Source of the DNA: Elusimicrobiota bacterium
GTDB lineage: Bacteria > Elusimicrobiota > Endomicrobiia > Endomicrobiales > JAPLKN01
Direction: 5' to 3'
DNA: 64,000 nt
Assembly: GCA_042562855.1 (NCBI GenBank)
Contig: JBHPNE010000003.1
Span: 6,366 to 70,365, forward strand
A model generated the notes under the pieces. It saw only the letters and a program-made list of their open reading frames with translations, did no database searches and had not been told where the DNA came from. Shown here in pieces: positions 7,997-25,110 of the stretch (its first letter is position 1; each line of letters opens with the position of its first letter). The translations under genes were made by a program, and so were the position numbers.

Positions 7997-9424
7997 GTGA
8001 AAAAAGAAATTATTGTTAATCGTGCAAGTGATGAGATTCGTGTTGCCATAATGGAAGACGGGAGACTCGTGGATCTTTTTATGGAAAGGAGGGAGTCGGA
8101 AAAAATTGTAGGCAATATTTATAAGGGCCGTGTTGTATCAATTCTACCAGGGCTTTCCAGCGCGTTTGTGGATGCAGGTTTGGATAAAAACATTTATCTC
8201 TCAATGGGAGATATAGTTACGGAAGAAAAAGGAAAAAACATTGAAAAAATGATCACGAAGGGCCAGGAAATACTTATTCAGGTTACCAAAGAGCCCATAA
8301 GCACAAAGGGAGCAAAGGGAACAATGGATATTTCGCTTCCCGGGAGACTTCTTGTTTACATGCCCTTTGACAAGCATGTGGGTGTATCAAAAAATATTAG
8401 TTCAAGGGAAGAGTGCGACAGACTGAAAAAAATAATCGAGGAAAAAAAAGATGAGTCTGCCGGAGGCTTTATAGCGCGTACCGAAGCTGAAGGGGCAACG
8501 GATAAAGAAATAAGGCGCGAAATGAAGTACTTGGCTAGACTGTGGGATTCAATTAATCAAAGAACAAAAAAAGCAAAGACCCCATCGTTACTGCATAGGG
8601 ACTTAGGGATAGTATTTCAGACAGTCAGAGATTTTTTTAACGAAGAAACGGATATCTTCTTAATAGATTCTCAGGAAGAATATAATGAGGTGTTAGGTTT
8701 TGTAAAAATTGTCTCGCCCGAACTTTCCGAAAAGGTCCACAGGCATACGGGAAAAACCAGTATTTTTAAAGCCTACGGGGCCGAGGAGCAGATAAAAAAG
8801 CTTAGCTCAAACCATGTAAATTTGCCGTCAGGCGGATACATTATTATTCAGGAGGCAGAGTCTCTTTGTGCGATAGATGTTAATACGGGGCGTTTCAAAG
8901 GCAAGCAGTCTCAGGAAGAAACTGTTACAAAGACAAATATAGAGGCCGCATGTGAAATCGCAAAAGAGATACGCTTGAGAAATATCGGCGGTATTATAGT
9001 TATAGATTTCATTGATATGAGAAGCTCTAAAAACAGGCAGAGAGTTTTGGAGACGTTAAAACTCGCAACAAAAGGCGATAAGGCAAAAATAAAGATATGG
9101 CCAATTACGAAATTAGGCCTTATTGAAATGACCAGGGAAAGAAAAAGAGAATCTTTACTTTCTCTTTTAGGCGAAAAGTGCCCCATGTGCAACGGTTCAG
9201 GGCTTGTCGCATCCAAAGAATCTCTTTTCCTAAATATCAATAACGAATTATCTCATTTAAAACTTAGCAGACACAGCGGAAAAGTACGCCTTAAACTCAA
9301 CCCGAAAGTCGCAGCATATTTTAATGAAAGGCTGCAAAGGCTAAAAAAATCCGTCGGAGCAGAAATTGAGATACAGACCGGCAATGATATTTCCTGGGAA
9401 GATTACCAGATAATAGTGGAATAA
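7997..9424 (+). CDS. rng: ribonuclease G (RNase E/G family)
   Basis: 475 aa with a GTG start behind GGAGG. S1 domain (VGNIYKGRVVSILPGLSSAFVD), catalytic core (CAIDVNTG, GGIIVIDFIDM) and zinc-link CPMCNGSG. Confidence 0.92.
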   Translation: MKKEIIVNRASDEIRVAIMEDGRLVDLFMERRESEKIVGNIYKGRVVSILPGLSSAFVDAGLDKNIYLSMGDIVTEEKGKNIEKMITKGQEILIQVTKEPISTKGAKGTMDISLPGRLLVYMPFDKHVGVSKNISSREECDRLKKIIEEKKDESAGGFIARTEAEGATDKEIRREMKYLARLWDSINQRTKKAKTPSLLHRDLGIVFQTVRDFFNEETDIFLIDSQEEYNEVLGFVKIVSPELSEKVHRHTGKTSIFKAYGAEEQIKKLSSNHVNLPSGGYIIIQEAESLCAIDVNTGRFKGKQSQEETVTKTNIEAACEIAKEIRLRNIGGIIVIDFIDMRSSKNRQRVLETLKLATKGDKAKIKIWPITKLGLIEMTRERKRESLLSLLGEKCPMCNGSGLVASKESLFLNINNELSHLKLSRHSGKVRLKLNPKVAAYFNERLQRLKKSVGAEIEIQTGNDISWEDYQIIVE

Positions 9425-11121: not shown

Positions 11122-12360
11122 ATGGGCACAAAAGTTTTTTCAAAGTTGCTTGTAGTTGTCATGCTCATTTCCGTTCCGCTGACTTTGGCCTATGCGGGAC
11201 TGAAAACTGACAACTTCGAAGCAACGTACGGCGTAGTGGCAGGTACCGGTACTTTTAGTAGCGGCATATCTGCTAGCACAATTTCGGTAACGTCCCAGAC
11301 AGGTTTCAGACTGGGTGTTTCGACGACAGCAGGATATGTTCTAACCACAGATGCAAACGGTGTGGGTACATGGCAGCCATCGGTAGCAGGAGTTTCAGAT
11401 CATGATGCTCTCACATCAACTGGGACATTAACACATCTTGAGCTTGAAGCCCAAATTACTGCTCTCGATGCATCCACAATCACGTTGAGGACCGATGTAA
11501 ATACCCTCGATGCGTCCACGCAAACGCTGAGTACGGCTGTAAGTAACAGGTTGCTAAATACCAGCGATACGTTGACGGGAACATTAACCGTAACGGCCGG
11601 TGTTGCAGCATCTACCGGTGTATTTAGCGGAACTTTAGACGCAGACACGCTTAATACCGGAAATGGCGATTATGAGCTTTTTGCTATGAATCAGGATGTA
11701 GAGACGACTGATGATGTGACGTTCAGCTCACTATCGGTTACCAACCTCGGTGGTTTCAGAATAGGAGTATCCACGACAGCTGGATATGTTCTAACCACAG
11801 ATGCAAACGGTGTGGGTACATGGCAGCCATCGGTAGCAGGAGTTTCAGATCATGATGCTCTCACATCAACTGGGACATTAACACATCTTGAGCTTGAAGC
11901 CCAAATTACTGCTCTCGATGCGTCCACAATCACGTTGAGGACCGATGTAAATACCCTCGATGCGTCCACGCAAACGCTGAGTACGGCTGTAAGTAACAGG
12001 TTGCTAAATACTAGCGATACGTTGACGGGAACATTAACCGTAACGGCTGGTGTTGCAGCATCTACCGGTGTATTTAGCGGAACTTTAGACGCAGACACGC
12101 TTAATACCGGAAACGGCGATTACGAACTTTTCGCCATGGATCAGGATGTTCAGACGACTGATGATGTAACATTCAGCTCAGCCACAATTACCAATACTCT
12201 TACAGCAAGCGGCGATCTAGCACTTTCTGCTACATCCACTGTTTTATACGGACCGGATGATACAGACGGCAGCTGGAAAACCGTAAGGGTCGGCAACGAT
12301 CTCGTAACATATCGTTACGATACCGATACTTGGGTAGAAAAATACAGGGTTATTCCGTAA
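11122..12360 (+). CDS. secreted fibre-like protein with an internal 150-aa tandem duplication
   Basis: 412 aa with AGGAGG RBS and signal peptide ...LTLAYA. Thr/Ala/Gly/Asp-rich, with two copies of FR.GVSTTAGYVLTTDANGVGTWQPSVAGVSDHDALT... Confidence 0.85.
   Translation: MGTKVFSKLLVVVMLISVPLTLAYAGLKTDNFEATYGVVAGTGTFSSGISASTISVTSQTGFRLGVSTTAGYVLTTDANGVGTWQPSVAGVSDHDALTSTGTLTHLELEAQITALDASTITLRTDVNTLDASTQTLSTAVSNRLLNTSDTLTGTLTVTAGVAASTGVFSGTLDADTLNTGNGDYELFAMNQDVETTDDVTFSSLSVTNLGGFRIGVSTTAGYVLTTDANGVGTWQPSVAGVSDHDALTSTGTLTHLELEAQITALDASTITLRTDVNTLDASTQTLSTAVSNRLLNTSDTLTGTLTVTAGVAASTGVFSGTLDADTLNTGNGDYELFAMDQDVQTTDDVTFSSATITNTLTASGDLALSATSTVLYGPDDTDGSWKTVRVGNDLVTYRYDTDTWVEKYRVIP
11302..12201 (+). 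repeat. 2 x 450-bp in-frame tandem duplication
   Basis: 11302-11751 versus 11752-12201. The core 11332-11663 versus 11782-12113 differs at only 3 positions (11472, 11562, 11598), all third-codon and synonymous. The edges are clearly more diverged. Confidence 0.97.
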
Positions 12361-12421
12361 ACGTAATTTCGCCGGGATTATTTCATTGTTTATCGTGAAA
12401 AATCCCGCAGAGGTGAAAGAA

Positions 12422-13024
12422 ATGTCTAGGATAAAAGGAAACTTAATAAACGAAAGATTCTTAAAAGTTCTTGCCAGTGGTGCAGGTTTTGCATTCGGCA
12501 GGAAACGTTTATTGTCTTATTCCATTTTATTCTTATTTACAGGAGTTTCTTTTGCTCTGATAATCGGCGGAGGATACATAGTTGAATTCGCAAGACTTGT
12601 TGGCAGCGGCGGCCAAAGGTTGGCCAGCTCCAATTACGTTTTAAACGGAGCGGGTATAGAGAGTATAGGAGGTTTATCAATGGCGGGCGGAGTGTACTCA
12701 ATAGATACCAGCCAATCAACAGGCGTTGCCAAACTAGAGGCGGATTTAACAATTGCCCATTGCTATCCGAATCCATACAAGCCTAACTCAGGGTTAGGCC
12801 ATAACAAAATAACGTTTTCGCATACCACAGCGTATACGAAACTTATGGTGTTTAATATAGCAGGAGAACTGGTTTACAGTACAGAAGCCGATACGCCTAC
12901 AGGCGAACTTGAATGGAATGTGCGAAATAATGCAGGCGAAAAAGTTGCCTCAGGCGTATATCTGTATCTGTTAACCGATAATGAAGGACACAAGAAAGTA
13001 GGCAAGTTTGCGATTTTGAGGTAA
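12422..13024 (+). CDS. membrane-anchored mini-protein ending in a T9SS-type / FlgD-Ig-like C-terminal domain
   Basis: ATG follows GAGGTGA (the ORF-track TTG at 12386 is less likely). Has a basic N-region plus one hydrophobic helix. C-terminus: YPNPYKP...ITF...LMVFNIAGELVYS...WNVRNNAGEKVASGVYLYLLTDNEGHKKVGKFAILR. Confidence 0.75.
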   Translation: MSRIKGNLINERFLKVLASGAGFAFGRKRLLSYSILFLFTGVSFALIIGGGYIVEFARLVGSGGQRLASSNYVLNGAGIESIGGLSMAGGVYSIDTSQSTGVAKLEADLTIAHCYPNPYKPNSGLGHNKITFSHTTAYTKLMVFNIAGELVYSTEADTPTGELEWNVRNNAGEKVASGVYLYLLTDNEGHKKVGKFAILR

Positions 13025-13042
13025 ATCCTAAACGGAGGAGAA

Positions 13043-14173
13043 GTGCAAAGGCTTGGTTGGTTATCATTACTCTTAATATCAGTCTTTTTTGCAAGCGTCC
13101 TTTATGCGGCGGCTCCTACAAGCTTCCGTTATCAGGGCACCTTGAAAGAGAATGAAAAAGTGGTAGATGGTACAAAAACCATGCGTTTCCGTTTTACCAA
13201 TTCTGACGGTTCAACACAGTATTGGACCAGCGGGAATGTTGCCGTTACAGTTACGGGCGGTGTTTTCAGTACTGAACTTACTCCGTCGGTAGACTGGAAC
13301 AATATCCCCGGAGGAGGCTATTATCTGGAAATATCCGTTGAGGGAGAGGTTCTTCTTCCGAGAGAAAAAGTTTTATCAAACATTTATTCGCTTCATGCAA
13401 GAAATATAGATGACGGTATTGTAACACAGGCAAAATTAGACACTGGTGTAGCTGCTCAGTTGAATCTTGGTACTCATATTGCGACCACCACTCTTAATAT
13501 GTCTAACCAGCAAATATCAAATGTCGGAGCCTTCCATTATCCTGTTGGGCATACTGCCGGAGATGTTTTGACCGTAGATGCCGCAGGTAATGCTTCCTGG
13601 GGTAACCCGGGAGTTGTAGCTGGTACAGGTGATAGTTTGGGAAGTCATATTGCAACAATGACTCTTAATATGGCAAATTTTGCCATAATAAATTCAAGCG
13701 GTTTCCAGATGACTACCGGTGCATCTTCAGGCTATGTTTTAACTTCAGACGGCGCAGGTTATGCAAGCTGGGCTGCTCCAACAGGCGACAGCTTGGGTAC
13801 ACATGTAGCAACTCAAACATTAAATATGTCGGGTTTTGGAATTTCCAATGCTGCAAGTTTCCAGATGACAACAGGTGCATCTGCAGGCTACATTTTAAGT
13901 TCTGATGGTTCAGGTAATGCAGCTTGGATTTCTACATCAACATTTGCCGGAGACAATTTCGGAAATCATGTAGCTACTACAACAGTAAACATGAGTAACA
14001 ATGACATAATCAATGTAAAGGATGTTAAATCCAGCACAACATCAGTTTTTTATTTAGGTGATGAAAACACCGACGGAACATGGAGATTTCAGGTGGACGG
14101 TAATGGAGATTTAATATTTGAAAAGAGAATTGGCGGATCCTATGTGACACAAACCACGATAGACGCGCCCTAA
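13043..14173 (+). CDS. secreted fibre-like protein with ~50-aa repeats
   Basis: 376 aa with a GTG start behind GGAGGAG and a signal peptide. N-domain: FRYQGTLKENEKVVDGTKTMRFRF...YLEISVEGEVLLPREKV. Then four units of G(D)sLG.H.AT.TLNMs...I.N...F.MTTGAS.GY.L.SDG.G.A.W. Confidence 0.85.
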   Translation: MQRLGWLSLLLISVFFASVLYAAAPTSFRYQGTLKENEKVVDGTKTMRFRFTNSDGSTQYWTSGNVAVTVTGGVFSTELTPSVDWNNIPGGGYYLEISVEGEVLLPREKVLSNIYSLHARNIDDGIVTQAKLDTGVAAQLNLGTHIATTTLNMSNQQISNVGAFHYPVGHTAGDVLTVDAAGNASWGNPGVVAGTGDSLGSHIATMTLNMANFAIINSSGFQMTTGASSGYVLTSDGAGYASWAAPTGDSLGTHVATQTLNMSGFGISNAASFQMTTGASAGYILSSDGSGNAAWISTSTFAGDNFGNHVATTTVNMSNNDIINVKDVKSSTTSVFYLGDENTDGTWRFQVDGNGDLIFEKRIGGSYVTQTTIDAP

Positions 14174-14218
14174 ATCTAAGGAAAATAATTTCATAAAAAT
14201 ATATACGGATAAAAATAA

Positions 14219-14989
14219 ATGAAATTTTACATTAAATCAATTCTTTACTTTTCCATATTATTTATAACTGGTTTAGCAAATGCAGGTTTTGTTTCAGACA
14301 GGGTTGGAGTAGGTATCGTAAATCCAAATGATCTGGAAGTAGCAGGCAGAATCACAGTGTCTTCTTTTACAATGACAACCGGGGCTTCCAGCGGTTATGT
14401 ACTCAGGAATAGTGTTGGTGGAAACGCATATTGGTGTGCCTGCGTGGCTATTAGTTCAACAAATACTTGGTCAGGGGGTAATACCTATTTGGGTGCTTCA
14501 ACGATGACGGCCTTGACTCTCGATACAATAAATCACAAATCGGCATTGATAACTATAGCAAACGACAGCAACGACTTTGTAACATCCGGGACAGGAAATA
14601 TTGGTATCTCTACGGGAGTTCCGCAGGCAAAACTTGATGTTAACGGAGCTGTTTTAAGCAACCAAACTATACTTTCAAATACAGACGGTGGTGCAACTTT
14701 AGATTTTACCGGGATCAACAGCTACATTTATTATTATAATGCAAACGGGGCGTCATCGCCAACCAATGTAACAGCAATTACCGGAGGGGAAGCAGGGCAA
14801 ATGGTTACATTTTTTTATTACAGAACTGCTAGTCCCACAAATAGAAATCTGACAATAGTGAACAAGGCAGGAGCTAATGGGATTGTAACCGGCACAAACG
14901 GTAATATAACATTAACTGCAAACGATGGAGGTTGCCTAATTCTATGTTTTAACGGCACATATTGGTATATTGTTAACGCTCAGCTTTAA
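14219..14989 (+). CDS. secreted fibre paralog, shared N-module plus tip type A
   Basis: 256 aa. Signal peptide ...GLANA is followed by GFVSDRVGVGIVNPNDLEVAGR...SSFTMTTGASSGYVL...STNTWSGGNTY...GNIGISTGVPQAKLDVNGA. Ends FNGTYWYIVNAQL. Confidence 0.85.
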   Translation: MKFYIKSILYFSILFITGLANAGFVSDRVGVGIVNPNDLEVAGRITVSSFTMTTGASSGYVLRNSVGGNAYWCACVAISSTNTWSGGNTYLGASTMTALTLDTINHKSALITIANDSNDFVTSGTGNIGISTGVPQAKLDVNGAVLSNQTILSNTDGGATLDFTGINSYIYYYNANGASSPTNVTAITGGEAGQMVTFFYYRTASPTNRNLTIVNKAGANGIVTGTNGNITLTANDGGCLILCFNGTYWYIVNAQL

Positions 14990-15003
14990 AATTAGGAGAT
15001 ATA

Positions 15004-15750
15004 ATGATTAAAAAAATACTGTTTATCCCATTTTTGTTCTTATTTGCTTCGCCTCTTATCGGAGGAGTTGTTTCAGATAGGGTAGGCGTTGGCAATGTTT
15101 CTAATCCGACGGATCTTGAAGTAAGCGGAAGGGTTACGGCATCCTCTTTTACAATGACTACAAACGCCGTAGATGGATATATTATTATTTCAGATGCGGA
15201 TGGAAACGGAACCTGGCAGGTACCATATGGATTTGCACTGCTTGCTTCAACAAACACTTGGACAGGGGGAAACACCTGGTTACTACCTTCAACAATGACG
15301 ACTTTAGCAGTGGATACAATCAGTCACAACTCAAAGTTGATAACAATAGCAAATGACGGAAATGACGTGGTAACCTCCGGAACCGGCAATGTCGGTATCG
15401 GCACAATAACGCCTCAGAAAAAACTTGATGTGGAAGGGGCCATAGTAAGTAAACAAAATACAGCAACACTGAATGGTACAGCAACTACAATAGATGTTGC
15501 AGATTGCAACAGCGTTAGCTTAACAGTGAATTCCAGCACAAATTTAAACGGATTCACAAATGGTGTAGCTGGCCAAACCGTTTGCATATTTAATACTTCC
15601 ACCACGAATAATGTGGTTTTGGTCAACCAAAACGCTACAGGTACAGGCATTACAACAGGCACAGGTGGAAATGTTACCGTTACTGCTGAGGGTGGAGCGG
15701 TCTTCACTTTTGATGGTACCTATTGGTATATGGTTGGTTTGCAGCAGTAA
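15004..15750 (+). CDS. secreted fibre paralog, shared N-module plus tip type A
   Basis: 248 aa with AGGAG RBS. Same module order as the 14219 gene and ends FDGTYWYMVGLQQ. Confidence 0.85.
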   Translation: MIKKILFIPFLFLFASPLIGGVVSDRVGVGNVSNPTDLEVSGRVTASSFTMTTNAVDGYIIISDADGNGTWQVPYGFALLASTNTWTGGNTWLLPSTMTTLAVDTISHNSKLITIANDGNDVVTSGTGNVGIGTITPQKKLDVEGAIVSKQNTATLNGTATTIDVADCNSVSLTVNSSTNLNGFTNGVAGQTVCIFNTSTTNNVVLVNQNATGTGITTGTGGNVTVTAEGGAVFTFDGTYWYMVGLQQ

Positions 15751-15779
15751 TTTAGAGTTTTGAAAATGGCATTAATAAA

Positions 15780-17084
15780 ATGAAAAAATTCAAAGTATTC
15801 ATTTTAACAATTTTTTTTTTAAGTATTAATTCTTCCCTCTTTGCCTATGCGGGAAGCACCGCGGCATCTTTCCTTAAAATCGGCACTGGAGCAAGAAACC
15901 TTTCGATGGCAGGCGTGGGCGCAGTAAGCAGAGACGTTAATGCCATATACTACAATCCTTCAGGTCTTTGCTTTGTGGAAGAACAGCAGTTTACATTCAT
16001 GCATCTTAAGTGGTTTCAGGATATAAACTATCAAAACCTTTCCTATGCCGCATGCCCTATTGGTGAACATCATTTCGGAGCATCCATCAATTACCTTTCC
16101 ATGGACGAAATAGAAAAATACGATGTCAACGATAATCCTTTGGGAAGCACCTACAGTCCGTTTGATTTCTCCGCTACGTTTGCTTATGCCACGCCCTTGC
16201 GCGAAGATTTCTTCGTCGGAGCAAATTTGAAATTCATCAGTTCTCAGATTGATGATACCAATGCCTGGACAATAAGCGAAGATCTAGGAGCAACATATAC
16301 GGGATTTGAAAAATTCACTCTTGGTGCATCAATACAAAATATCGGAGGCAGTTTAAAATATGTGGCGGAGGAGGAGAAGCTCCCCTTAAATTTAAAAGTC
16401 GGCGCTGAATATGTATGGGAATATAACGACAAAATAAAGCCTAAATTTTATATGGATATTAATCAGAGCACGGAACTGGACCCATACATAAATGTTGCAG
16501 GAGAGATGGATTTCAAACCCTCAGACAATGACAAAATGTCTTATTCGTTAAGGTTAGGTTACAGAACAAGGGACAGATACTCAAGCGGCGTGGGTTTTTC
16601 CGCAGGTGCTGGAATAGTTTTTGATAATATGGGCCTGGATTTTGCATGGGCTCCTTACGGTGAGCTGGGAGAAACTTACGGAGTATCCCTAAACTTTAAG
16701 CTGGGGGTATGTAAAGACAAACCGAAAAAGAAAGAGCGTCCGAGAGAAGAAGTTCTGGAAAAAAAGAAGGAAAAAAAGGAAAAAACCAAACCGGCGTCCG
16801 TTGTTTCCCTCAATTTGTCGGGCAAAGCTGAAACAGCCAGCTCTATACGCTGGAAATGGAATAAAATCTCAAGTGCCTCCGGATACCGTATTTACGATGG
16901 CAAAACGGACAAATTGCTTGCAGAATTTTCAGATAATAAGACTTCCTGGCTTGAGTTAAAGCTAGAACCTGAAATGGAATACAGCCGCTACATAAAAGCA
17001 TATTATGCCCAAGGCACAGCAAGAGAAAAATCCTCAAAGAAAATATCGGTCAAAACATCCGTCAAAAAATGGAAGTTCTTCTAA
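15780..17084 (+). CDS. PorV/PorQ-like outer-membrane beta-barrel fused to a Lys/Glu linker and an FN3-like domain
   Basis: 434 aa. After the signal peptide comes GSTAASFLKIGTGARNLSMAGVGAVSRDVNAIYYNPSGL, the hallmark PorV/UPF0164-type N-terminus. An alternating barrel-like body follows. The KE-rich linker is at ~16710-16790. The C-terminal SIRWKWNKISSASGYRIYDG...LEPEMEYSRYIKAYY is FN3-like. Confidence 0.7.
   Translation: MKKFKVFILTIFFLSINSSLFAYAGSTAASFLKIGTGARNLSMAGVGAVSRDVNAIYYNPSGLCFVEEQQFTFMHLKWFQDINYQNLSYAACPIGEHHFGASINYLSMDEIEKYDVNDNPLGSTYSPFDFSATFAYATPLREDFFVGANLKFISSQIDDTNAWTISEDLGATYTGFEKFTLGASIQNIGGSLKYVAEEEKLPLNLKVGAEYVWEYNDKIKPKFYMDINQSTELDPYINVAGEMDFKPSDNDKMSYSLRLGYRTRDRYSSGVGFSAGAGIVFDNMGLDFAWAPYGELGETYGVSLNFKLGVCKDKPKKKERPREEVLEKKKEKKEKTKPASVVSLNLSGKAETASSIRWKWNKISSASGYRIYDGKTDKLLAEFSDNKTSWLELKLEPEMEYSRYIKAYYAQGTAREKSSKKISVKTSVKKWKFF
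15811..15820 (+). repeat. T10 homopolymer inside the signal-peptide codons of the PorV-like gene
   Basis: Ten consecutive T read directly (codons ATT TTT TTT TTA). Confidence 0.95.
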
Positions 17085-17218
17085 AAAATTCCGTCTCACC
17101 GAAGACTAAAAAACCTCAAAAAAAACACAACTTCTATTGCGATTTTAATAGGTAGATAGCGATTATACCTGTTTATTTTTAAAAAATGGGACACGATATT
17201 CTTTTTTTAAAAAACAGC

Positions 17219-17247
17219 TTGAAAAACAGGTTAAAATATTATAGTAT
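17219..17247 (+). promoter_or_regulatory. candidate promoter TTGAAA-N17-TAGTAT of the large regulator gene, overlapped by AAACAGGT half-sites
   Basis: -35 at 17219-17224 and -10 at 17242-17247. AAACAGGT occurs at 17224-17231 (spacer) and 17249-17256 (around the expected start site). TATACCTGTTT is at 17164-17174. Confidence 0.4.
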
Positions 17248-17301
17248 CAAACAGGTCAGATATTAAACTGTTTTGCAAAAATGGGTATTTGGGGATAAAT
17301 T

Positions 17302-20300
17302 GTGAATACAAAAGACAACAAAAAGCAATCTTCACTCTGTTTCGAGGGGATGGAACATTCCGCTATAATTTATGAGACCGAAGCAGAACATAAAGCGGTA
17401 GTATCCAAGTGGATAGTTGATGGGCTAAAGCAAAAGAAAAAAGTTCTGTATATTTTGGATAATCACTCGCGGGAAACAATAACCGGCTATTTAAAAGAAT
17501 CCGGTTTAGACCTCAAACAATATCTCGACTCCGGCCAGCTGCAAATCATTCCTCAAAGCGAGCTTTATGTTATTGATGGAAACTTTGATCCCGACCGCAT
17601 AGTCAGCTTTTACAAATCAGAAATAAAGAAAGCAAAAGATTCACACTTTTCAGGAGTGAACATAAGCGTAGAAATGTCCTGGATGAAAAGTTTTAAACCA
17701 GGCGATGAGAGATTGCTATCTTACAGAATGAAAATGTCGGATTTAATTCAAGAAAGTAAGATTTCTCTCCTTTGTCAGTTTAATAAAAATACGTTTAGCG
17801 CAGAAATGCTTTTGGCTGTTATAAGGAACCATTCTACTTTGTTCATTGGCAGCGAAAAGATTTCAAATTTAGCATCTTTGTCGGCAGAAGAATACCCCAA
17901 TCCGGACTCCGCAGAAGCAATTCTATCTCATACTATCAAGTCGCTCATTGTACAAAAAAATGGGAAAGCAAGGTTCGAGGCGCTTGAAGATGAGTTTTTG
18001 AGTCTTGCCGAAGCTCAATCCATTTGGATTTGGGAAACAGACAAGGAGGGAATATATAATTACTCAAACACAAAGGTTAAGGATTTTTTTGGAATTGATA
18101 AAAATGAAATTGTAGGGAAAATTTCTTTTGACTTTTTGCCGGAAGCGTTTGCAAAAGCAGTAAAAATAACGTGTGAAGAGCTAATGGCAGGAAAGATGCT
18201 TCAGAAGCAAATAGAAAACAGAGTTTTAGACAAGGAAGGGCATGAAGTTTTCTTTGAGTCAACAATTTGTGTTTTATTTGACAGTGAAAGAAATCACAAA
18301 GGCTTCAGGGGTACCGTAAAAGACATTACGGAAAAAAAACACGAAAATGAACAAATAGAAAAAAATAAGGTCTTATTTGAAAATATTTCCAGAATGGCTC
18401 CCGTGGGAATTTTCCGAACTGATGAGCATGGACTATGCACATATGTAAATGAAAAATGGCTTGAAATTGCGTCTCTAAAGCCACAAGAAGCTTTAGGGGA
18501 AGGCTGGACAAACGGTTTATATCCGGAAGATAAGGAAACGGTTTTTAAGGTATGGGCAAATGCTATTAAAAACAATTATAATTTCAAACTGGAATACAGA
18601 TTCGGGAAACCATATTCAAAAATTACGTGGGTATTGGGCCAGGCGATGGCCGAAAAAGATTCAGACGGAAAAATAACCGGATATGTCGGTACAATAACGG
18701 ACATAACTGAACGGAAAAAATATGAAACGCAAATCAGCGAGTCCGAAGAAAAAATACGTACCATCATAGAATCTAACAGAGATATTATTTTTTCTCTCGA
18801 TTCCGGCGGTTTTGTAAAATATATCTCGCCTCAGATTTCTAAATACGGGTATAACGAAGAAGATTTGATGGAGCATAAATTCGACAAGTTTATTCACCCA
18901 CAGGACGTTGTTTCGGAATCTAATATCTTTAAACAAATCCTCGAGTTTGATTTGGCGACACCTCCGCATTCATTCCGGTTTAAGAAAAAGGACGGCCAGT
19001 TTTGTTATTTGGAGGCGTTATCTAGGAAGAGGGTGCTCGATAACGGATCTGTTGAAGTTATATCAACAGTGAGAGACGTTACTTCACGTATTCGCTCTGA
19101 AAAAGCCTTAAGCATAATAAATAAAACGTTTTTGTCTTTCGGGCCGAATCCTTTGGAAAATATCGGCCGCATGGCCCATGCTGCAGGAGAAATATTGGAA
19201 GCTGTATGTGTGCTTTATAACCGCAAAGAGGGGGATATGCTTCATACTTTAGCGGGCTGGCAGATTCCTCGGGATATGCCGCTTTCCGACAAGGGTAAGG
19301 GACATATTTGTTTTGATGTTATTGACAACGGCGGGGATGAGCCGTTTGTACTGGATAATCTTCAAGAATCGTCTTATATGAACACCGATCCTAACGTAAA
19401 AAAATACGGGCTTAAAACTTACGCAGGGTTTGCAGTAAAAGTTGGAACCCAGGCAGTAGGTGCTTTTGGGGCCGTTTATCAGGATGATAGAAAATTTGAA
19501 ACTTTCGAGCTTAGCATTTTAAAGATTATGGGATTGGCAGTCTCTATTGAAGAAGAGCGTTTAGCAGATAAAGATAAAATAGTCGAGACGTCCCGGCTTT
19601 TTTCTTCAATTACTCAGTTGGCTCCGGTCGGAATATACAGGAAGGATATTGAGGACAAATACGTATACACAAATAAACGATGGGGCGAAATTTCAGGGCT
19701 CTCGTGTGAGGAAGCCTTGGGAGATGGTTGGAAAAAGGCTTTGTATCCGCAAGATAAAAGCTATGTTGATAAAGAGTGGGAAAATTCGGTTGCAACAGGG
19801 AAACCGTACAGACTAGAGTACAGATTCCTAAGAACCGACGGAACAATATCCTGGGTATTAGACCGTTTATTGCCGGAAAAAGATAAAGAAGGGAACATTA
19901 CTGGATATATTGGCGCCATAACGGACCTTACAGGCATAAAAGAACTGAAAGCAAAACTGGATAAAAGCGAAGAAAATTACAAAAATATTTTAGAAAGTAC
20001 CGTGGATATTATTCAAGTTGTTGATTTCGACGGGACTATTAAATTTTGCAGCCCTCAAATTGAGCAGCTGGGCGATACTGTTGAGAATGCGGTCGGTAGA
20101 AATGTGGCTGAAATTGTTCATCCAGAGGACAGAAAAATGCTGTTTGATGCTTTTGAGAGTGTTGCAAAAGGCAATGATGGCGGAAGCGTTGTAGCACGTT
20201 ACAAAAAGCCGAACGGTGAATATGTATCTTTGGAAGGCTCCGGAAAGTTAAGCCGGGACAGGTTTAATAATCCGCAAATGACGGTTGTGTTAAGAGATGT

Positions 20301-21150
20301 TTCTGAGCGTATTGAATATGAAAAAAAGCTGGCGTTCAGGACAATTGTTATGGAGACTCAAATTCACCTATCTCCCGATGCTGTTTTGGTAGTGGACAGA
20401 GAAGCCAAACCATACCTTCATAACAAGAAGTTTATAGAATTATTTGATACCCCTGAGGACTTCTTGTCACAGAAGGGCCAAGAGAAGGTTTGGAAAATGC
20501 TTACGGAAAAAATTAAAGATCATGAAAGTTTTTTTGAGAAAATCAAGTATTTATATTCGCAGCCTAAAGAAGTCGGGTCTGGTGAGCTTGAAATGAAAAA
20601 CGGAATGTTCGTGAAATGGAATTCTGTACCACTTTTTGATAAAAAGAAGAATTTTAATTATGGCAGGGCATGGTTTTTTAGTGATATCACAAATTCAAAA
20701 AAGGAAAATTTGGATCTTTCTTTACTTTCAAAAAATCTTGAGAATAAAACAATAGCTTTAAAAGAGCTTCTTGCCCAGGTAGAGATAGAGAAAAAAGAAT
20801 TCGGAGAAAATTTGTTAAAAAATATAGAAAGGACTGCCCGTCCTCTCATCGGAAAGATAAGAAGAATGAAGGTTCCCAAAATCAGCAAATATCTTGAAAT
20901 GCTGGAAAAGGATCTGGACAATCTTGCATCTCCTTTCGGAAAGATAGTTGAATCTCCAAGGACCAGGCTTTCTCCTCGTGAAGTGGAAATTTGTAACATG
21001 ATACGAAATGGTTATAAGAATGCAAAAATTGCTAAGATCCTGAAGGTTTCAGGCCACACCATTCAAACCCATAGAAGGGCCATCCGAAAGAAGCTTGGCA
21101 TTGGCAGAAAAAAGATTAATTTATCCACCTATCTGCAGCAGGGCCATTAG
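17302..21150 (+). CDS. cytoplasmic MEDS - multi-PAS - GAF - PAS - LuxR/GerE HTH regulator
   Basis: 1282 aa with a GTG start. N-terminus is MEDS-like (HSAIIYETEAEHKAVVSKWIVDGLKQKKKVLYILD...). About six PAS-like units each end in ...DIT.RK-type motifs. GAF region around HAAGEILEAVCVLYN...GAFGAVYQD. C-terminal LSPREVEICNMIRNGYKNAKIAKILKVSGHTIQTHRRAIRKKLGI. Confidence 0.85.
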   Translation: MNTKDNKKQSSLCFEGMEHSAIIYETEAEHKAVVSKWIVDGLKQKKKVLYILDNHSRETITGYLKESGLDLKQYLDSGQLQIIPQSELYVIDGNFDPDRIVSFYKSEIKKAKDSHFSGVNISVEMSWMKSFKPGDERLLSYRMKMSDLIQESKISLLCQFNKNTFSAEMLLAVIRNHSTLFIGSEKISNLASLSAEEYPNPDSAEAILSHTIKSLIVQKNGKARFEALEDEFLSLAEAQSIWIWETDKEGIYNYSNTKVKDFFGIDKNEIVGKISFDFLPEAFAKAVKITCEELMAGKMLQKQIENRVLDKEGHEVFFESTICVLFDSERNHKGFRGTVKDITEKKHENEQIEKNKVLFENISRMAPVGIFRTDEHGLCTYVNEKWLEIASLKPQEALGEGWTNGLYPEDKETVFKVWANAIKNNYNFKLEYRFGKPYSKITWVLGQAMAEKDSDGKITGYVGTITDITERKKYETQISESEEKIRTIIESNRDIIFSLDSGGFVKYISPQISKYGYNEEDLMEHKFDKFIHPQDVVSESNIFKQILEFDLATPPHSFRFKKKDGQFCYLEALSRKRVLDNGSVEVISTVRDVTSRIRSEKALSIINKTFLSFGPNPLENIGRMAHAAGEILEAVCVLYNRKEGDMLHTLAGWQIPRDMPLSDKGKGHICFDVIDNGGDEPFVLDNLQESSYMNTDPNVKKYGLKTYAGFAVKVGTQAVGAFGAVYQDDRKFETFELSILKIMGLAVSIEEERLADKDKIVETSRLFSSITQLAPVGIYRKDIEDKYVYTNKRWGEISGLSCEEALGDGWKKALYPQDKSYVDKEWENSVATGKPYRLEYRFLRTDGTISWVLDRLLPEKDKEGNITGYIGAITDLTGIKELKAKLDKSEENYKNILESTVDIIQVVDFDGTIKFCSPQIEQLGDTVENAVGRNVAEIVHPEDRKMLFDAFESVAKGNDGGSVVARYKKPNGEYVSLEGSGKLSRDRFNNPQMTVVLRDVSERIEYEKKLAFRTIVMETQIHLSPDAVLVVDREAKPYLHNKKFIELFDTPEDFLSQKGQEKVWKMLTEKIKDHESFFEKIKYLYSQPKEVGSGELEMKNGMFVKWNSVPLFDKKKNFNYGRAWFFSDITNSKKENLDLSLLSKNLENKTIALKELLAQVEIEKKEFGENLLKNIERTARPLIGKIRRMKVPKISKYLEMLEKDLDNLASPFGKIVESPRTRLSPREVEICNMIRNGYKNAKIAKILKVSGHTIQTHRRAIRKKLGIGRKKINLSTYLQQGH

Positions 21151-21211
21151 CCGTAAAATTCCAAATTCGTAAAAACCCTGAAAATATTTTATCCTATTAA
21201 AAGTCAGTTAA

Positions 21212-21231
21212 CAGGTATATTTATATACCTG
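21212..21231. promoter_or_regulatory. 20-bp palindrome CAGGTATAT-TT-ATATACCTG
   Basis: 9-bp arms read directly, preceded by AA as at 10190. Lies 22 bp upstream of a TTGACA box. Confidence 0.55.
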
Positions 21232-21253
21232 ATAGGTACCAGATACTTAATTA

Positions 21254-21282
21254 TTGACAATTGATTGAAATTTCATTATATT
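21254..21282 (+). promoter_or_regulatory. sigma70-like promoter TTGACA-N17-TATATT for the paralog trio
   Basis: -35 at 21254-21259 and -10 at 21277-21282. CTTAATTaTTGACAAT matches the 10216-10231 module. Confidence 0.55.
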
Positions 21283-21315
21283 TACTGCATGTAGTAATAA
21301 TTGCAAAGGTATGTA

Positions 21316-22329
21316 ATGAAATTCTATTCTAAATGGTTGATACTGTTTTTAATAGTTTTATGCAGTAAAAATCTTTCCGCCGGTTTTGTTACCGATAAGC
21401 TGGGTGTAGGTACGGCAAATCCCACGGAAGTAGAAGTAATAGGCACTGTTAAAGCCTCTTCTTTTACAATGATAACAGGGGCCTCCGACGGATACATCCT
21501 TACCACTGATGCATCGGGCAACGGCACATGGCAAACAGCTTCTTTTCCTGATCCCGCACTTCTTATTAACTCAACAAATACATGGACAGCGGCAAACACC
21601 TGGCTTTCCTCATCGACATTCAATCAAAATTCGCTTGACAAGGATTTTCGCATAAAGGGACAGACCGATGCGAATTTGTTTTTCGCAGACGCCTCTGCCA
21701 ACCGCATCGGTATAGGGACCGATTCGCCTGTAGAAAAACTCACCGTTAACGGAAGGTTGGCAATAGCTGAAGGAGATCAGTGTGTCCCTTATTCAGGATA
21801 CGGAAACCTTTGCGTGGATAACGTTAATAAGCAGCTGTCTCATATGGAAGCTTTAGGCAGTATCGAGCTGATAACCCCAAGCTATGCTATTTTTCAGGAA
21901 CAGCAGCCGTCGGGAACTTCAGGCGGCGGATTTTCGGCAGGTTCATGGGTACAAAGAACTTTAAATACTACCATTGCTTCAAGAGGAACTAGCATAACCC
22001 GTTCCGGAAGCGATATAATTCTTTCTTCGGGTACCTACCAGGTAATGATAGAAGCGCCCGCTTACAGGGTAAATTTACATCAAACCAGGTTCTATAATGT
22101 TACGGACGGAGCTACGGCATTTTCCGGCAGTTCAGAATATTCAAGATCTTCGGCTGTGGGCGATTCTACCCCAAGCTTATTGCACGGAGCTGTAGTGATA
22201 ACGGATCAGAAAACTTTCAGGATAGAGCACCGGTGCGGAACCGCAAATGCTACTGACGGTTTTGGAAATGCGTCCGGATTCGGGGAAACAGAAGTTTATA
22301 CCTATTGTTTTATACAAAGGTGCAAGTAG
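21316..22329 (+). CDS. secreted fibre paralog, shared N-module plus tip type B
   Basis: The ATG at 21316 (MKFYSKW...) is preferred over the ORF-track TTG at 21301. Signal peptide ...NLSA, then GFVTDKLGVGTANPTEVEV...SSFTMITGASDGYILTTDASGNGTW...STNTW...NRIGIGTDSPVEKLTVNG. C-terminal tip contains SGTSGGGFSAGSWVQRTLN... Confidence 0.85.
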   Translation: MKFYSKWLILFLIVLCSKNLSAGFVTDKLGVGTANPTEVEVIGTVKASSFTMITGASDGYILTTDASGNGTWQTASFPDPALLINSTNTWTAANTWLSSSTFNQNSLDKDFRIKGQTDANLFFADASANRIGIGTDSPVEKLTVNGRLAIAEGDQCVPYSGYGNLCVDNVNKQLSHMEALGSIELITPSYAIFQEQQPSGTSGGGFSAGSWVQRTLNTTIASRGTSITRSGSDIILSSGTYQVMIEAPAYRVNLHQTRFYNVTDGATAFSGSSEYSRSSAVGDSTPSLLHGAVVITDQKTFRIEHRCGTANATDGFGNASGFGETEVYTYCFIQRCK

Positions 22330-22340
22330 AAGGGTAAAAA

Positions 22341-23354
22341 ATGAAGCTTAAAAATTTTATAATTTTAAATACAATAACTTTTCTTATTTTTTTCGTGCAA
22401 TTGCTTAATGCAGGAATAGTGACTGACAGGGTTGGGATCGGTTCTATAAGCGACCCGACAGATCTTGAAGTGTTAGGAAGAGTAACTTGCTCAACTTTTA
22501 CGATGACAACCGGAGTATCTGCGGGATATGTGCTTAAATGCGATGCAGCAGGAGCGGCATACTGGGCCGCAGCCGTTGACTGCAGTATTTTAAATGCCAC
22601 AAACACATGGACTGCACCCAACTCCTGGACATCTTCATCTATATTCAATGCAAATATGCAGGATAAGGATTTCAGGATAAAGGGGCAGTTAGACGCGGAT
22701 CTTTTCTTTGCTGATGCTTCTCAAAACGAAGTCGGTATTGGCACATCGGCTCCTCACGCAGAGATTACCTTAAACGGCCGGCTTGCATTGGCAGAAACTA
22801 CCGTACCGACTGCATCATCAGGATACGGAAAACTATTTTGCAAAGCAACTGACAGCCAGCTTTATTATCAGGACGGTACAGGAGATACTGTTCTAGTCAG
22901 CGGCCAGTTTGCTTCCATTGAAGACCAAAAAACATCAGGAACTAACGGCGGAACCTTTACCTCAGGTGCCTGGCAGACAAGGACTTTGAACGCAGTTCAG
23001 GCTTCACGTGGAAGCTTTTTTTCGCTTTCGTCAAACCAGGTTACTTTGGCCGCAGGAACATACAGAATAATGGCGTCGGCGCCGGCATATTACGTAGGGG
23101 CGCATAAATTGAGGTTACGAAATATTACAGACGGTACGACGGCTGTTTATGGCACAGCAGCGCTTTCAAATACTTCTACCCAGGCTTCTTCAGGAAGAAG
23201 TGTATGCCAGGGAATAGTTACCATTGCGGCCCAAAAGACTTTTGAAGTCCAGCATTATTGCGCGAGCACAAGAGCTACTGACGGTTTAGGGCAGGCGGCC
23301 GGTTTTGGCGATACGGAAATATATGCGATTTTATGCATACAAAAGATAAGATAG
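22341..23354 (+). CDS. secreted fibre paralog, shared N-module plus tip type B
   Basis: 337 aa with the same architecture. Tip: SGTNGGTFTSGAWQTRTLN...GTYRIMASAPAYYVGAHKLRLRNITDG...KTFEVQHYC...DGLGQAAGFGDTEIY. Confidence 0.87.
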   Translation: MKLKNFIILNTITFLIFFVQLLNAGIVTDRVGIGSISDPTDLEVLGRVTCSTFTMTTGVSAGYVLKCDAAGAAYWAAAVDCSILNATNTWTAPNSWTSSSIFNANMQDKDFRIKGQLDADLFFADASQNEVGIGTSAPHAEITLNGRLALAETTVPTASSGYGKLFCKATDSQLYYQDGTGDTVLVSGQFASIEDQKTSGTNGGTFTSGAWQTRTLNAVQASRGSFFSLSSNQVTLAAGTYRIMASAPAYYVGAHKLRLRNITDGTTAVYGTAALSNTSTQASSGRSVCQGIVTIAAQKTFEVQHYCASTRATDGLGQAAGFGDTEIYAILCIQKIR

Positions 23355-23400
23355 TGCGGTTTTTTATTCTATATAGTTTTAAGTTTAAAAGGCGAAAAAA

Positions 23401-24423
23401 ATGGAATTAATGAGAAAGTTTAAAATTTTTATTACCAGCCTTTTTATATTTTTAGTTTTAATAACAAATATTCTGCATGCGGGCATTACGACCGATAGGA
23501 TCGGCATAGGGTCGGTAAGTAATCCGACAGACTTAGAAGTCAGCGGAAAAATCACGGCTTCATCATTTACCATGACAACTTCTCCCACAAACGGTTATGT
23601 TCTTCAATGCGATGCTTCTGGAATCGCTTCCTGGGCGGATGCGTCTGACTGCAACCTTTTGACCATGGCAAATACTTGGACGGCACCCAATTCCTGGCTT
23701 TCATCTTCAACGTTTAACGCGAATTCCGGTGACAACGATTTGCAGATAAAGGGGCAAACCAATGCCAATGTTTTTTTTGCCGATGCTTCTTTTGACAGGA
23801 TAGGTGTGGGAACAGGAACTACGAATGAAAAACTTACCGTCAACCATCATTTTTCCCTGGTCGAAACCACCGTTCCGACCGCATCATCAGGATACGGAAA
23901 AATATTCTGTAAATCAAGTGATGGTCAGTTTTATTTTCAGGATGACTCCGGAGACACGGTTTTGCTTTGTAAACATTTTGTATCTATTCGGGACGAAAAA
24001 GCCTCGGGTACCGCCGGCGGAACTTTTACCTCAGGCGCATGGCAGACTAGGACTTTGAATGCCGTTCAGGCGGCAAGCGGAGACTTTTATTCGCTTTCGT
24101 CAAATCAGATAACTTTAGCGACGGGTACTTACAGAATTCTTGCATCGGCTCCTGCATATTATGTGGATTCGCATAAGGCAAGGTTTCAGAATGTTACCGA
24201 CGCAACAACAGCCATTTACGGTGCTTCTGCGTTGGCTAAGGCTTCGACTCAGGCTTCATCGGGAAGAAGTATTGTAATGGGGGTAATTACGATAGCTGCG
24301 CAAAAAACTTTTGAACTCCAGCATAGGTGTGCAACCACGAGAAATACAGACGGTTACGGACAGGCGGCGAATTTCGGCGAAACTGAAGTTTACTCGGCCA
24401 TCTGCATCATGAGACTAAAGTAG
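23401..24423 (+). CDS. secreted fibre paralog, shared N-module plus tip type B
   Basis: 340 aa, the closest paralog of the 22341 gene. Contains a T8 run at 23771-23778. Its stop codon lies inside the left REP-like hairpin. Confidence 0.87.
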   Translation: MELMRKFKIFITSLFIFLVLITNILHAGITTDRIGIGSVSNPTDLEVSGKITASSFTMTTSPTNGYVLQCDASGIASWADASDCNLLTMANTWTAPNSWLSSSTFNANSGDNDLQIKGQTNANVFFADASFDRIGVGTGTTNEKLTVNHHFSLVETTVPTASSGYGKIFCKSSDGQFYFQDDSGDTVLLCKHFVSIRDEKASGTAGGTFTSGAWQTRTLNAVQAASGDFYSLSSNQITLATGTYRILASAPAYYVDSHKARFQNVTDATTAIYGASALAKASTQASSGRSIVMGVITIAAQKTFELQHRCATTRNTDGYGQAANFGETEVYSAICIMRLK

Positions 24424-24438
24424 GGACAGCGCCTACTT
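24418..24438. repeat. REP-like hairpin, left copy (7-bp stem, 7-nt loop)
   Basis: Read directly. Contains the stops of the 23401 gene (+) and of the transposase (-). Confidence 0.9.
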
Positions 24439-25110
24439 TATGGCTTCTTTTCTCGGCCTTCCCATCTTTGGGGAAGTTAATTTCTTACCAAACTTATTTT
24501 CTAAGTTTTTAATAAATGCAGTAGCTCCAAAAGGCAGACCGGACAACGTGTGTTTTCGTATTGCAGTAACGGCATTCTCTTCTTCTTGCCCATCAATGTA
24601 TTTTTTCCATTTATTTATATTCATATCTAAATAACGAAAAATATTTTCCAATTTTATTTTAGGTACTCCCAAGCCGGTGTTAGCTAAGGCGCTAGACCAT
24701 TCCCAATCCCACGGTTTCTTAACTTGTTTTGATCGGACAGGGTTTTTCTCAATGTATCTTGCGGCGGAAAGTAAATGAATTTCATCCAAAACGCAAGAAA
24801 AAAACCGTCCTTGCCACAGATGACCGCAAGAATTATTTTTCCGATTAAAATATTGAGCATATTTCATGTGTGTTGCATTGAAAGTTCTTGAAAGAGAATC
24901 TTCTTTTGAGGGGATTGCTATAAAGTGGACATGATTACTCATAAGACAGTAAGATAAAATACTTAGTCCATATTTTTTGCTGTATTCGCCAATACAGGAA
25001 AGATAATATTTCCTGTCAATGTCATCGAAAAAAACAGTTTGTTTGTTGTTGCCCCGCTGTGTGATGTGATGGGGGAGGCCGATCGCTACAATTCTGGCTG
25101 TTCGTGGCAT
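24433..25110 (-). CDS. IS200-like / RayT-like HUH tyrosine (Y1) transposase
   Basis: 225 aa. N-terminal LPHHITQRGNNKQTVFF, HUH motif SNHVHFIAIP, and catalytic-Tyr region ARYIEKNPVR. Confidence 0.85.
   Translation of the reverse strand: MPRTARIVAIGLPHHITQRGNNKQTVFFDDIDRKYYLSCIGEYSKKYGLSILSYCLMSNHVHFIAIPSKEDSLSRTFNATHMKYAQYFNRKNNSCGHLWQGRFFSCVLDEIHLLSAARYIEKNPVRSKQVKKPWDWEWSSALANTGLGVPKIKLENIFRYLDMNINKWKKYIDGQEEENAVTAIRKHTLSGLPFGATAFIKNLENKFGKKLTSPKMGRPRKEAIK

Follow-up and report, generated by a model that had tools for sequence, protein, structure and literature searches.

What kind of domain closes three tandem fibre genes on an Elusimicrobiota chromosome, and what could it do there? The genes, here named T1, T2 and T3, were taken from an open reading frame (ORF) listing of 64,000 nucleotides of Elusimicrobiota bacterium contig JBHPNE010000003.1 (the window), where they lie in tandem and co-oriented on the plus strand. 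An initial annotation of this DNA had left their common C-terminal tip unassigned and had proposed for it a compact beta-sandwich, possibly a C1q/TNF-like jelly roll, at the end of a fibre. The boundaries, family membership, fold, distribution and chromosomal context of the tip have now been established by prediction and search. The tip belongs to a known fold class and to a huge family that is mostly viral; as a domain it is not of a new kind. New here is a cellular, chromosomal and, judging from its signal peptide, Sec-exported member of this family of phage-type heads. The reading we favour, with moderate confidence, is that T1-T3 are Sec-exported surface fibres, each composed of a lineage-specific stalk, a neck and a trimerising, ligand-contacting TNF/C1q-type head of a phage-fibre family. 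The genes and their tips are as follows.

21316..22329, plus strand: T1, predicted secreted fibre protein of 337 amino acids (aa) from the ATG at 21316, with signal peptide, stalk, neck and divergent tip
21883..22326, plus strand: T1 tip, TNF/C1q-like head, divergent copy (phrog_24210, E 8e-19)
22341..23354, plus strand: T2, predicted secreted fibre protein of 337 aa, identical to database protein P0001
22905..23351, plus strand: T2 tip, predicted ten-strand jelly roll, TNF/C1q-like (homolog alignments, PHROG match, AlphaFold2, Foldseek)
23410..24423, plus strand: T3, predicted secreted fibre protein of 337 aa from the ATG at 23410, identical to database protein P0002
23971..24420, plus strand: T3 tip, 69% identical to the T2 tip (phrog_24210, E 1e-34)

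The mechanical ORF starts were a TTG at 21301 for T1 and position 23401 for T3, and the ATG codons at 21316 and 23410 are likelier. T1 most likely begins at the former; an AAGG motif resembling a Shine-Dalgarno sequence lies 6 nt 5' of it. With these starts all three proteins have 337 aa and a pairwise identity of 45-62% over their whole length. They match one another in tblastn with E values of 1e-85 to 1e-147, and their likeness is therefore far above chance. The motifs SGT.GG.F..G.W..RTLN, GTY, APAY.V..H..R..N.TD, KTF...H.C and DG.G.A..FG.TE.Y, from which the common tip had been recognized, are present in T1-T3, and our T2 boundary (22905-23351) agrees within one codon with that first proposed (22902-23351).

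A discrete module of a large family

A search with full-length T2 returned 657 proteins, in all of which, except T3, the alignment was confined to T2 residues ~189-337. The foreign proteins reach about 50% identity to the T2 tip, with E values of 1e-33 to 1e-48. As these alignments are limited to residues 189-337, the C-terminal block is a discrete module; together with a confident AlphaFold2 model, this bears out the idea of a separate domain with a fold of its own. The tip is about 148 residues long, and its family signature motifs are GGTFTSGAW..R.LN, NQ.TL..GTY and K.FE.QHRC. When the 149-residue tip was compared with 1.84 billion cluster representatives, 12,324 relatives were found at E<=1e-3 and 8,911 at E<=1e-10, each representing a cluster at 50% identity. 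At least 506 IMG/VR contigs encode the domain.

Pfam and NCBIfam scans of T1-T3 gave nothing at E<=10, and the tip was without a match in a Pfam scan of 80 family members (E<=0.01), so that for these two databases the domain is unassigned as first described. For PHROGs it is not. The family phrog_24210, labelled 'tail fiber protein', matches T1, T2 and T3 with E values of 8.4e-19, 8.7e-32 and 1.2e-34 over positions ~156-302 of 303, and phrog_6320, with the same label, matches them at E 1e-8 to 2e-5. The profile and structure searches proposed in the initial annotation have thus yielded both family and fold matches; the family match removes the orphan status of the domain and much of its novelty.

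In 220 of the 243 family members sampled, at most 12 residues follow the domain. Chains with one copy dominate this sample (157), followed by those with two (63) and three (18), and a few carry 4-14. Members with tandem heads include P0003, P0004, P0122 and P0123, the maximum seen being 14 heads; P0003 has three heads separated by linkers of ~10 residues and resembles a natural single-chain pseudo-trimer. The N-terminal partners comprise a phage tail-collar fibre domain, a phage depolymerase beta-sandwich, DUF5122 propeller repeats, CBM5/12 and collagen.

When the PDB was searched by sequence and by profile, matches did not rise above chance level (e.g., GAPDH and primase); the sequence searches returned no C1q, TNF or BclA chain, and no solved structure of the family was found. 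No reported ligand for the tip family was found in the literature. A self-cleaving chaperone of the peptidase S74 type was rejected, with no hidden Markov model (HMM) match and an all-beta model. Kinship with the C-terminal domain of CTHRC1 was considered after a literature match and dropped on comparison with the human sequence.

Predicted fold

The T2 tip was modelled by AlphaFold2 from an alignment of 80 sequences. The monomer model has a mean predicted local distance difference test score (pLDDT) of 94.1, a predicted template modelling score (pTM) of 0.88, ten beta-strands and no helix. Foldseek against the PDB retrieved BAFF, LIGHT, TNF, APRIL, EDA and 4-1BBL, the C-terminal domains of BclA and F-BclA and the gC1q domain of C1ql1, all with probability 1.0 and template modelling (TM) scores of about 0.55-0.62. 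Two cyanophage fibres were returned with the same probability, namely that of A4 (tail fibre, 9k09_A) and that of A-1(L) (distal domain of the short tail fibre, 8ke9_A). Against BFVD, near-identical folds (TM 0.83-0.93) were found in phage and giant-virus proteins, including the tail fibres of Sulfitobacter phages and S-RIP1, uncultured phage proteins, and proteins of Fadolivirus, Pithovirus, Solivirus and Hyperionvirus. The model thus supports a TNF/C1q-type ten-strand jelly-roll beta-sandwich, in keeping with the fold first suggested.

As modelled, the tip has in common with C1q/TNF-type heads (C1ql1 gC1q, BAFF, LIGHT, TNF, APRIL, EDA, BclA, F-BclA) the ten-strand jelly roll of some 140-150 residues and a C-terminal place on a stalk, presumed fibrous in the trio. 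At the sequence level there is no support for placing the tip in the C1q, TNF or BclA families: identity is 7-17%, their Pfam models do not match, and the signature motifs differ. The layout of collagen stalk plus head known from C1q and BclA occurs in other members of the tip family (Bacteriovorax and giant-virus proteins annotated as collagen), and not in the trio, in whose sequences no GXY collagen runs were found.

Relatives in phages, giant viruses and cells

The tip is the terminal domain of the annotated tail fibre in Sulfitobacter phages pCB2047-A/C and of the product of one Synechococcus phage S-RIP1 gene, M4NME2, which is called 'tail fiber protein' in UniProt. In these fibres of phrog_24210 and phrog_6320 (pCB2047-A/C YP_007675270.1, equal to M4QM50; S-RIP1 M4NME2) the domain has the same C-terminal position as in the trio. 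E values against the PHROG families go down to 1e-34 over the C-terminal ~145 profile positions, tblastn identity is 40-45%, and the predicted structures are the same, with TM 0.88-0.93 and a root-mean-square deviation of 1.2-1.4 Å. The PHROG fibres are virion proteins that lack a signal peptide and are encoded among phage structural genes, whereas the trio is chromosomal, has an unrelated stalk and, from its N-termini, appears to be Sec-exported; its neighbours are housekeeping genes and other genes for putative secreted fibres.

Tip genes of cultured bacteria are located within the tail modules of prophages. In Amphritea sp. HPY a tip gene lies directly 3' of baseplate hub and wedge genes of a prophage, in Pseudomonas gingeri it adjoins a terminase and a virion protein, and in Sporomusa it is found near a minor tail protein. 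The proteins of Fadolivirus, Pithovirus LCPAC, Solivirus and Hyperionvirus belong to the same family (TM 0.83-0.90, 22-45% identity); they come from eukaryotic viruses, unlike the bacterial chromosomal trio, and several carry an annotation as collagen-like or as collagen triple-helix proteins.

A more distant likeness connects the tip with the fibres of two cyanophages, gp33 of A-1(L) (8KE9) and gp24 of A4 (9K09), in which a similar jelly roll forms the C-terminal end of a trimeric fibre. Here the Foldseek E values are 2e-5 to 5e-5 and TM 0.53-0.56, which denotes a shared fold class and not a family, and a sequence relationship is undetectable. Both gp33 and gp24 are trimeric, and their authors assigned host-surface binding to the distal domain; a stem-CBD construct of gp33 bound host cells, and no such binding was seen with the CBD on its own (PMC10966104, PMC12002296). 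Another description of TNF-like domains on phage fibres concerns Pam3 gp24 (PMC9608196).

A genome scan detected the tip at 38-56% identity in Chloroflexota, Saccharibacteria, Gracilibacteria, Dojkabacteria, Pseudomonadota, Bacteroidota, Melainabacteria, Sporomusaceae, Planctomycetota, Bacteriovoracaceae, Leptospirales, Elusimicrobia and DPANN archaeal bins. This broad phylum pattern is best explained by spread with viruses. Most genomes with the tip carry one copy. Tandem triples exist in a Kapaibacterium genome and as three adjacent genes on a metagenome contig, and in both, length and copy number vary among the three genes. Heads at 40-52% identity were observed in bins of Aenigmatarchaeota and Nanoarchaeota (DPANN; loci L037, L052, L056, L063) and of Saccharibacteria, Gracilibacteria and Dojkabacteria (candidate phyla radiation, CPR; loci L003, L017, L020, L041), which may derive from viruses of these organisms or from mis-binned phage contigs.

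Secreted cellular members are a minority of the family: N-termini resembling signal peptides occur in 17 of the 243 sampled members, T2 and T3 included. The clearest examples, the Bacteriovorax proteins, consist of a signal peptide, a globular domain, 100-270 residues of GXY collagen, a linker of ~60 residues and then the head. Collagen is an obligate trimer, and a head that caps collagen is therefore compatible with threefold assembly.

Signal peptide, stalk and chromosomal setting of the trio

21254..21282, plus strand: sigma-70-like promoter, TTGACA-17-TATATT, 11/12, 5' of T1 (consensus match only)
22341..22415, plus strand: T2 Sec-type signal peptide (MKLKNFIILNTITFLIFFVQLLNA, followed by G), modelled as a helix at residues 2-23; cleavage site proposed from the sequence pattern
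22416..22790, plus strand: T2 stalk, common to T1, T3 and ORFs 14219-14989 and 15004-15750
22791..22904, plus strand: T2 neck, predicted beta-hairpins (SSGYGKLF..QLYYQD..GDTVLV), travelling with the tip in some foreign homologs
24416..24440, plus strand: terminator-like hairpin, 9-pair stem then a T-rich tail, overlapping the T3 stop codon (consensus match only)
14219..15750 (14219-14989 and 15004-15750), plus strand: two further putative secreted paralogs with the signal peptide and stalk of the trio and a different C-terminal tip

All three proteins open with Sec-type signal peptides, which end in LSA, LNA and LHA, each followed by G. The stalk of ~125 residues (T2 ~26-150) comes next. When the N-terminal half of T2 was compared with 5.8 billion proteins, one weak match was obtained, so that the stalk is essentially without homologs and unclassifiable. 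One full-length relative elsewhere, P0216, has the same signal peptide, stalk and head at 43% identity.

In the window itself the stalk is shared more widely. Residues 1-145 of ORFs 14219-14989 and 15004-15750 match the trio (hhalign probability 99.9, E 4e-32), and the likeness stops at the motif IGIGT..P..KL.VNG, beyond which the tips are unrelated. The alternative tip has about 100 residues with the conserved pattern ...GQ.V..F...T.N......G..TGT.GN.T.TA..G....F.GTYWY.V and no match in Pfam or PHROGs. The picture is one of a lineage-specific cellular stalk onto which alternative tips have been grafted, the phage-type head among them.

The setting is a core chromosome, with genes for MreB, PBP2, RodA, RNase G, aspartate aminotransferase, L21, L27, Obg, YchF, DHQ synthase and ThiC in the window. 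RNase G has 73% identity to proteins named Elusimicrobia and 60-66% to proteins of Endomicrobiales, which marks the source as an uncultured member of the Elusimicrobiota. The scanned parts of the 64-kb window yielded no genes for phage structure, lysis or integration. Over the trio, the guanine plus cytosine (GC) content is a little higher (0.435 vs ~0.39). T1-T3 have signal peptides and a stalk peculiar to their lineage, and they lie among housekeeping genes of a chromosome; for these reasons they look like cellular surface fibres with a phage-type head.

The gaps between the genes are 11 nt (T1-T2) and 46-55 nt (T2-T3). Given these short distances, one strong promoter-like site before T1 and one hairpin at the T3 stop, the trio is likely a single transcription unit, as far as consensus matches can tell. 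Antisense ORFs of 67-112 aa on the minus strand (21324-21623, 22310-22648, 23385-23588 and 23604-23843) cover the 5' parts of T1-T3 at roughly equivalent positions; the simplest reading is of shadow ORFs whose recurrence reflects the paralogy of T1-T3.

Conservation of the loops and divergence of T1

22932..22991, plus strand: A-A' loop of the T2 tip (TSGTNGGTFTSGAWQTRTLN), predicted, conserved
23154..23189, plus strand: end of strand E and E-F loop of the T2 tip (construct residues 93-104), predicted, the sole hypervariable stretch in trio and family
23262..23315, plus strand: G-H loop of the T2 tip (STRATDGLGQAAGFGDTE), predicted, conserved

The variable positions of the tips had been expected to lie mostly in loops that determine specificity. 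This expectation did not hold. On the predicted secondary structure, the variable fraction within the trio is 0.66 for strands vs 0.60 for loops, and family entropy is 1.56 bits for strands vs 1.62 bits for loops. The long A-A' (SGTxGGxFTSGAWxxRTLN) and G-H (TDGxGxAxxFGxxE) loops rank among the best-conserved segments, and E-F alone is hypervariable. The positions of the loops (top or base of the sandwich) and the adjacency of strands B, G and D were taken from canonical TNF topology, according to which the A-A', G-H and E-F loops would share one end of the sandwich, distal to the termini.

Synonymous sites between the paralogs are saturated (proportion of synonymous differences, pS, 0.57-0.78). 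The ratio of nonsynonymous to synonymous substitution (dN/dS), where computable, lies between 0.09 and 0.31 for stalk and tip; the neck has 0.55-0.63 in pairs that contain T1. The copies are therefore old and maintained. With synonymous sites saturated, a dN/dS scan reveals purifying selection only and is blind to positive selection in loops. Tip divergence among the paralogs is no greater than stalk divergence. In stalk alignment columns 101-160, T2 is closer to T1 (67%) than to T3 (52%), and the paralogs are therefore mosaic. Recent gene conversion was not seen in a repeat comparison at the DNA level, where a single 145-nt stalk segment reached 70% identity.

The T2 and T3 tips are sisters in 197 of 200 neighbour-joining bootstrap replicates. 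The T1 tip stands apart, with 44% identity to T2 and to T3, and is the farthest from T2 among 112 sequences. Taking the 47 positions conserved in at least 85% of foreign family members, T2 keeps 45, T3 43 and T1 30; if an artefactual first alignment column is excluded, 16 of 46 family-conserved residues are replaced in T1. They include N53S, Q54D, E123R and Q125E, at positions that are 99-100% conserved in 77 foreign members. Strands B and G are adjacent in the outer sheet of the TNF topology. Taken with this adjacency, the joint loss suggests that N53, Q54, E123 and Q125 may form one site that has been remodelled in T1.

Proposed function and alternatives

From these observations we infer a sequence of events for the trio. 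T1-T3 would be exported by means of their Sec signal peptides and displayed at the cell surface. Three heads would pack round a threefold axis, as in C1q, BclA, TNF ligands, gp33 and gp24, and the packed heads would nucleate the trimeric stalk and set its register from the C-terminal end. The heads could then act as an exposed distal knob that touches a surface ligand. The candidate site comprises N53, Q54, H76, E123, Q125 and H126 together with the conserved A-A' and G-H loops. The sole variable element is the E-F loop. Indirect support for the trimer comes from the collagen fusions of relatives and from single-chain members that have three copies joined by linkers of ~10 residues.

Several points weigh against this proposal. 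The predicted model of the head is a monomer, so its threefold packing in T1-T3 is by analogy. Likewise, the fibrous nature of the stalk is suggested by its motifs, and the AlphaFold2 monomer model of full-length T2 is poor in this part (pLDDT 42-76). A search for sequencing runs from which expression might be read returned none. Chains with two copies make up about one quarter of the sample and are not obviously explained by a strictly threefold head. Finally, the family keeps an identity of ~50% across bacterial phyla, DPANN archaea, phages and giant viruses, which is unusually high for a receptor-binding tip and which a structural or assembly role fits at least as well.

The last point leads to an alternative that we consider unlikely but worth weighing, namely that the head serves mainly as a C-terminal nucleus for folding and trimerisation, a registration domain without a ligand of its own, and that recognition, if any, resides elsewhere. 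Such registration domains have parallels in the NC1/gC1q domains of collagens VIII and X and in the C-terminal domain of BclA. The C-terminal position in 220 of 243 members, the great diversity of N-terminal fusion partners, the ~50% identity across domains of life and the conservation, not variability, of the loops all agree with it. The fold relatives at phage fibre tips, in contrast, have been assigned receptor binding, with the stem-CBD construct of gp33 binding host cells, and the invariant polar residues N53, Q54, E123, Q125, H76 and H126, which are of an exposed type, exceed the needs of a folding nucleus. Registration and binding are not mutually exclusive and can coexist in one head.

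Still less probable, in our view, is that T1, T2 and T3 co-assemble into one obligate heterotrimer, like the A, B and C chains of C1q, instead of forming three homotrimers. In its favour, the genes number exactly three and seem to form one transcription unit, their products are equally long with domains in register, and they are old paralogs under purifying selection. In addition, the T1 tip has changed at positions that the rest of the family keeps invariant, as expected of a specialised chain, and gene triples recur in the Kapaibacterium genome and the metagenome contig. The genes of these other triples, however, are unequal in length and copy number, most genomes have a single copy, so that the head functions as a homo-oligomer, and tandem sets of alternative fibres are common in phages. 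An extended version of this idea, to which we give only a slim chance, is that the lineage took over a phage head and built a 3+2 family of surface fibres on one stalk, in which the trio is a 1:1:1 heterotrimer with T1 as its specialised chain. If true, prokaryotes would have a counterpart of the heterotrimeric C1q head.

That the trio is a prophage or tailocin remnant, i.e., stranded tail-fibre genes without a cellular function, is very improbable, since the overwhelmingly viral nature of the tip family, the IS200-like Y1 transposase gene immediately downstream (24433-25110, minus strand) and the slightly raised GC are set against the absence of phage structural, lysis and integration genes from the scanned parts of the window, Sec signal peptides on all three proteins, unlike virion fibres, intact frames with dN/dS well below 1 despite saturated dS, and a stalk common to two further secreted paralogs.

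The fibre-gene island

7997-9421: RNase G, housekeeping gene in the window
11122-12360: 412-aa Thr/Ser-rich protein, predicted secreted, fibre-like gene of the island
13043-14173: 376-aa protein, predicted secreted, with the N-terminus APTSFRYQGTLKE..VVDG
17302-21150: 1282-aa regulator (MEDS sensory domain, five or more PAS domains, LuxR-type helix-turn-helix), directly upstream of the promoter-like site of the trio
24433-25110, minus strand: IS200-like Y1 transposase gene, 225 aa, abutting the end of the trio, its 3' end overlapping the hairpins after T3

The trio closes an island of about 13 kb of secreted fibre-like genes (11122-24423), whose edge may be marked by the transposase gene. The 1282-aa MEDS-PAS-LuxR protein is a candidate regulator of the fibre genes. 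The gene at 11122-12360 contains an internal 450-nt tandem duplication (11275-11574, 11725-12024), the copies of which are 93% identical, a sign that another fibre-like gene may recently have changed in length.

The protein encoded at 13043-14173 has three repeats of GDSLG.H.AT.TLNM....FQMTTGAS.GY.L.SD..G.A.W. Its N-terminus resembles that of tip-bearing secreted proteins in the Kapaibacterium genome and in another bin (L019 1505-2302; L050 5641-6435), where a similar N-terminal module is joined to a TNF-like head. Two other genes of the island, at 12386-13024 and 15780-17084, encode a small sorting-domain protein and a PorV-like outer-membrane protein. The small protein has a C-terminal sorting domain in the style of type IX secretion, with CHU_C above and Por_Secre_tail and FlgD_ig below the Pfam cutoff, and the PorV-like protein has a weak fibronectin-III-like match at its C-terminus. 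No sorting domain of this style was found in the trio proteins.

Significance of the tip family

The chief value of these results lies in annotation. About 12,300 clusters at 50% identity, without a Pfam or NCBIfam model, can now be described as TNF/C1q-like fibre heads. The family is represented in most bacterial phyla, in bins of CPR and DPANN, and in phages and giant viruses; its boundaries and motifs should help to annotate receptor-binding proteins of phages. One stalk with two types of tip illustrates how tips are swapped between viral and cellular fibres. The high conservation of the head, together with invariant polar residues that T1 alone has lost, points to a common site or an assembly role.

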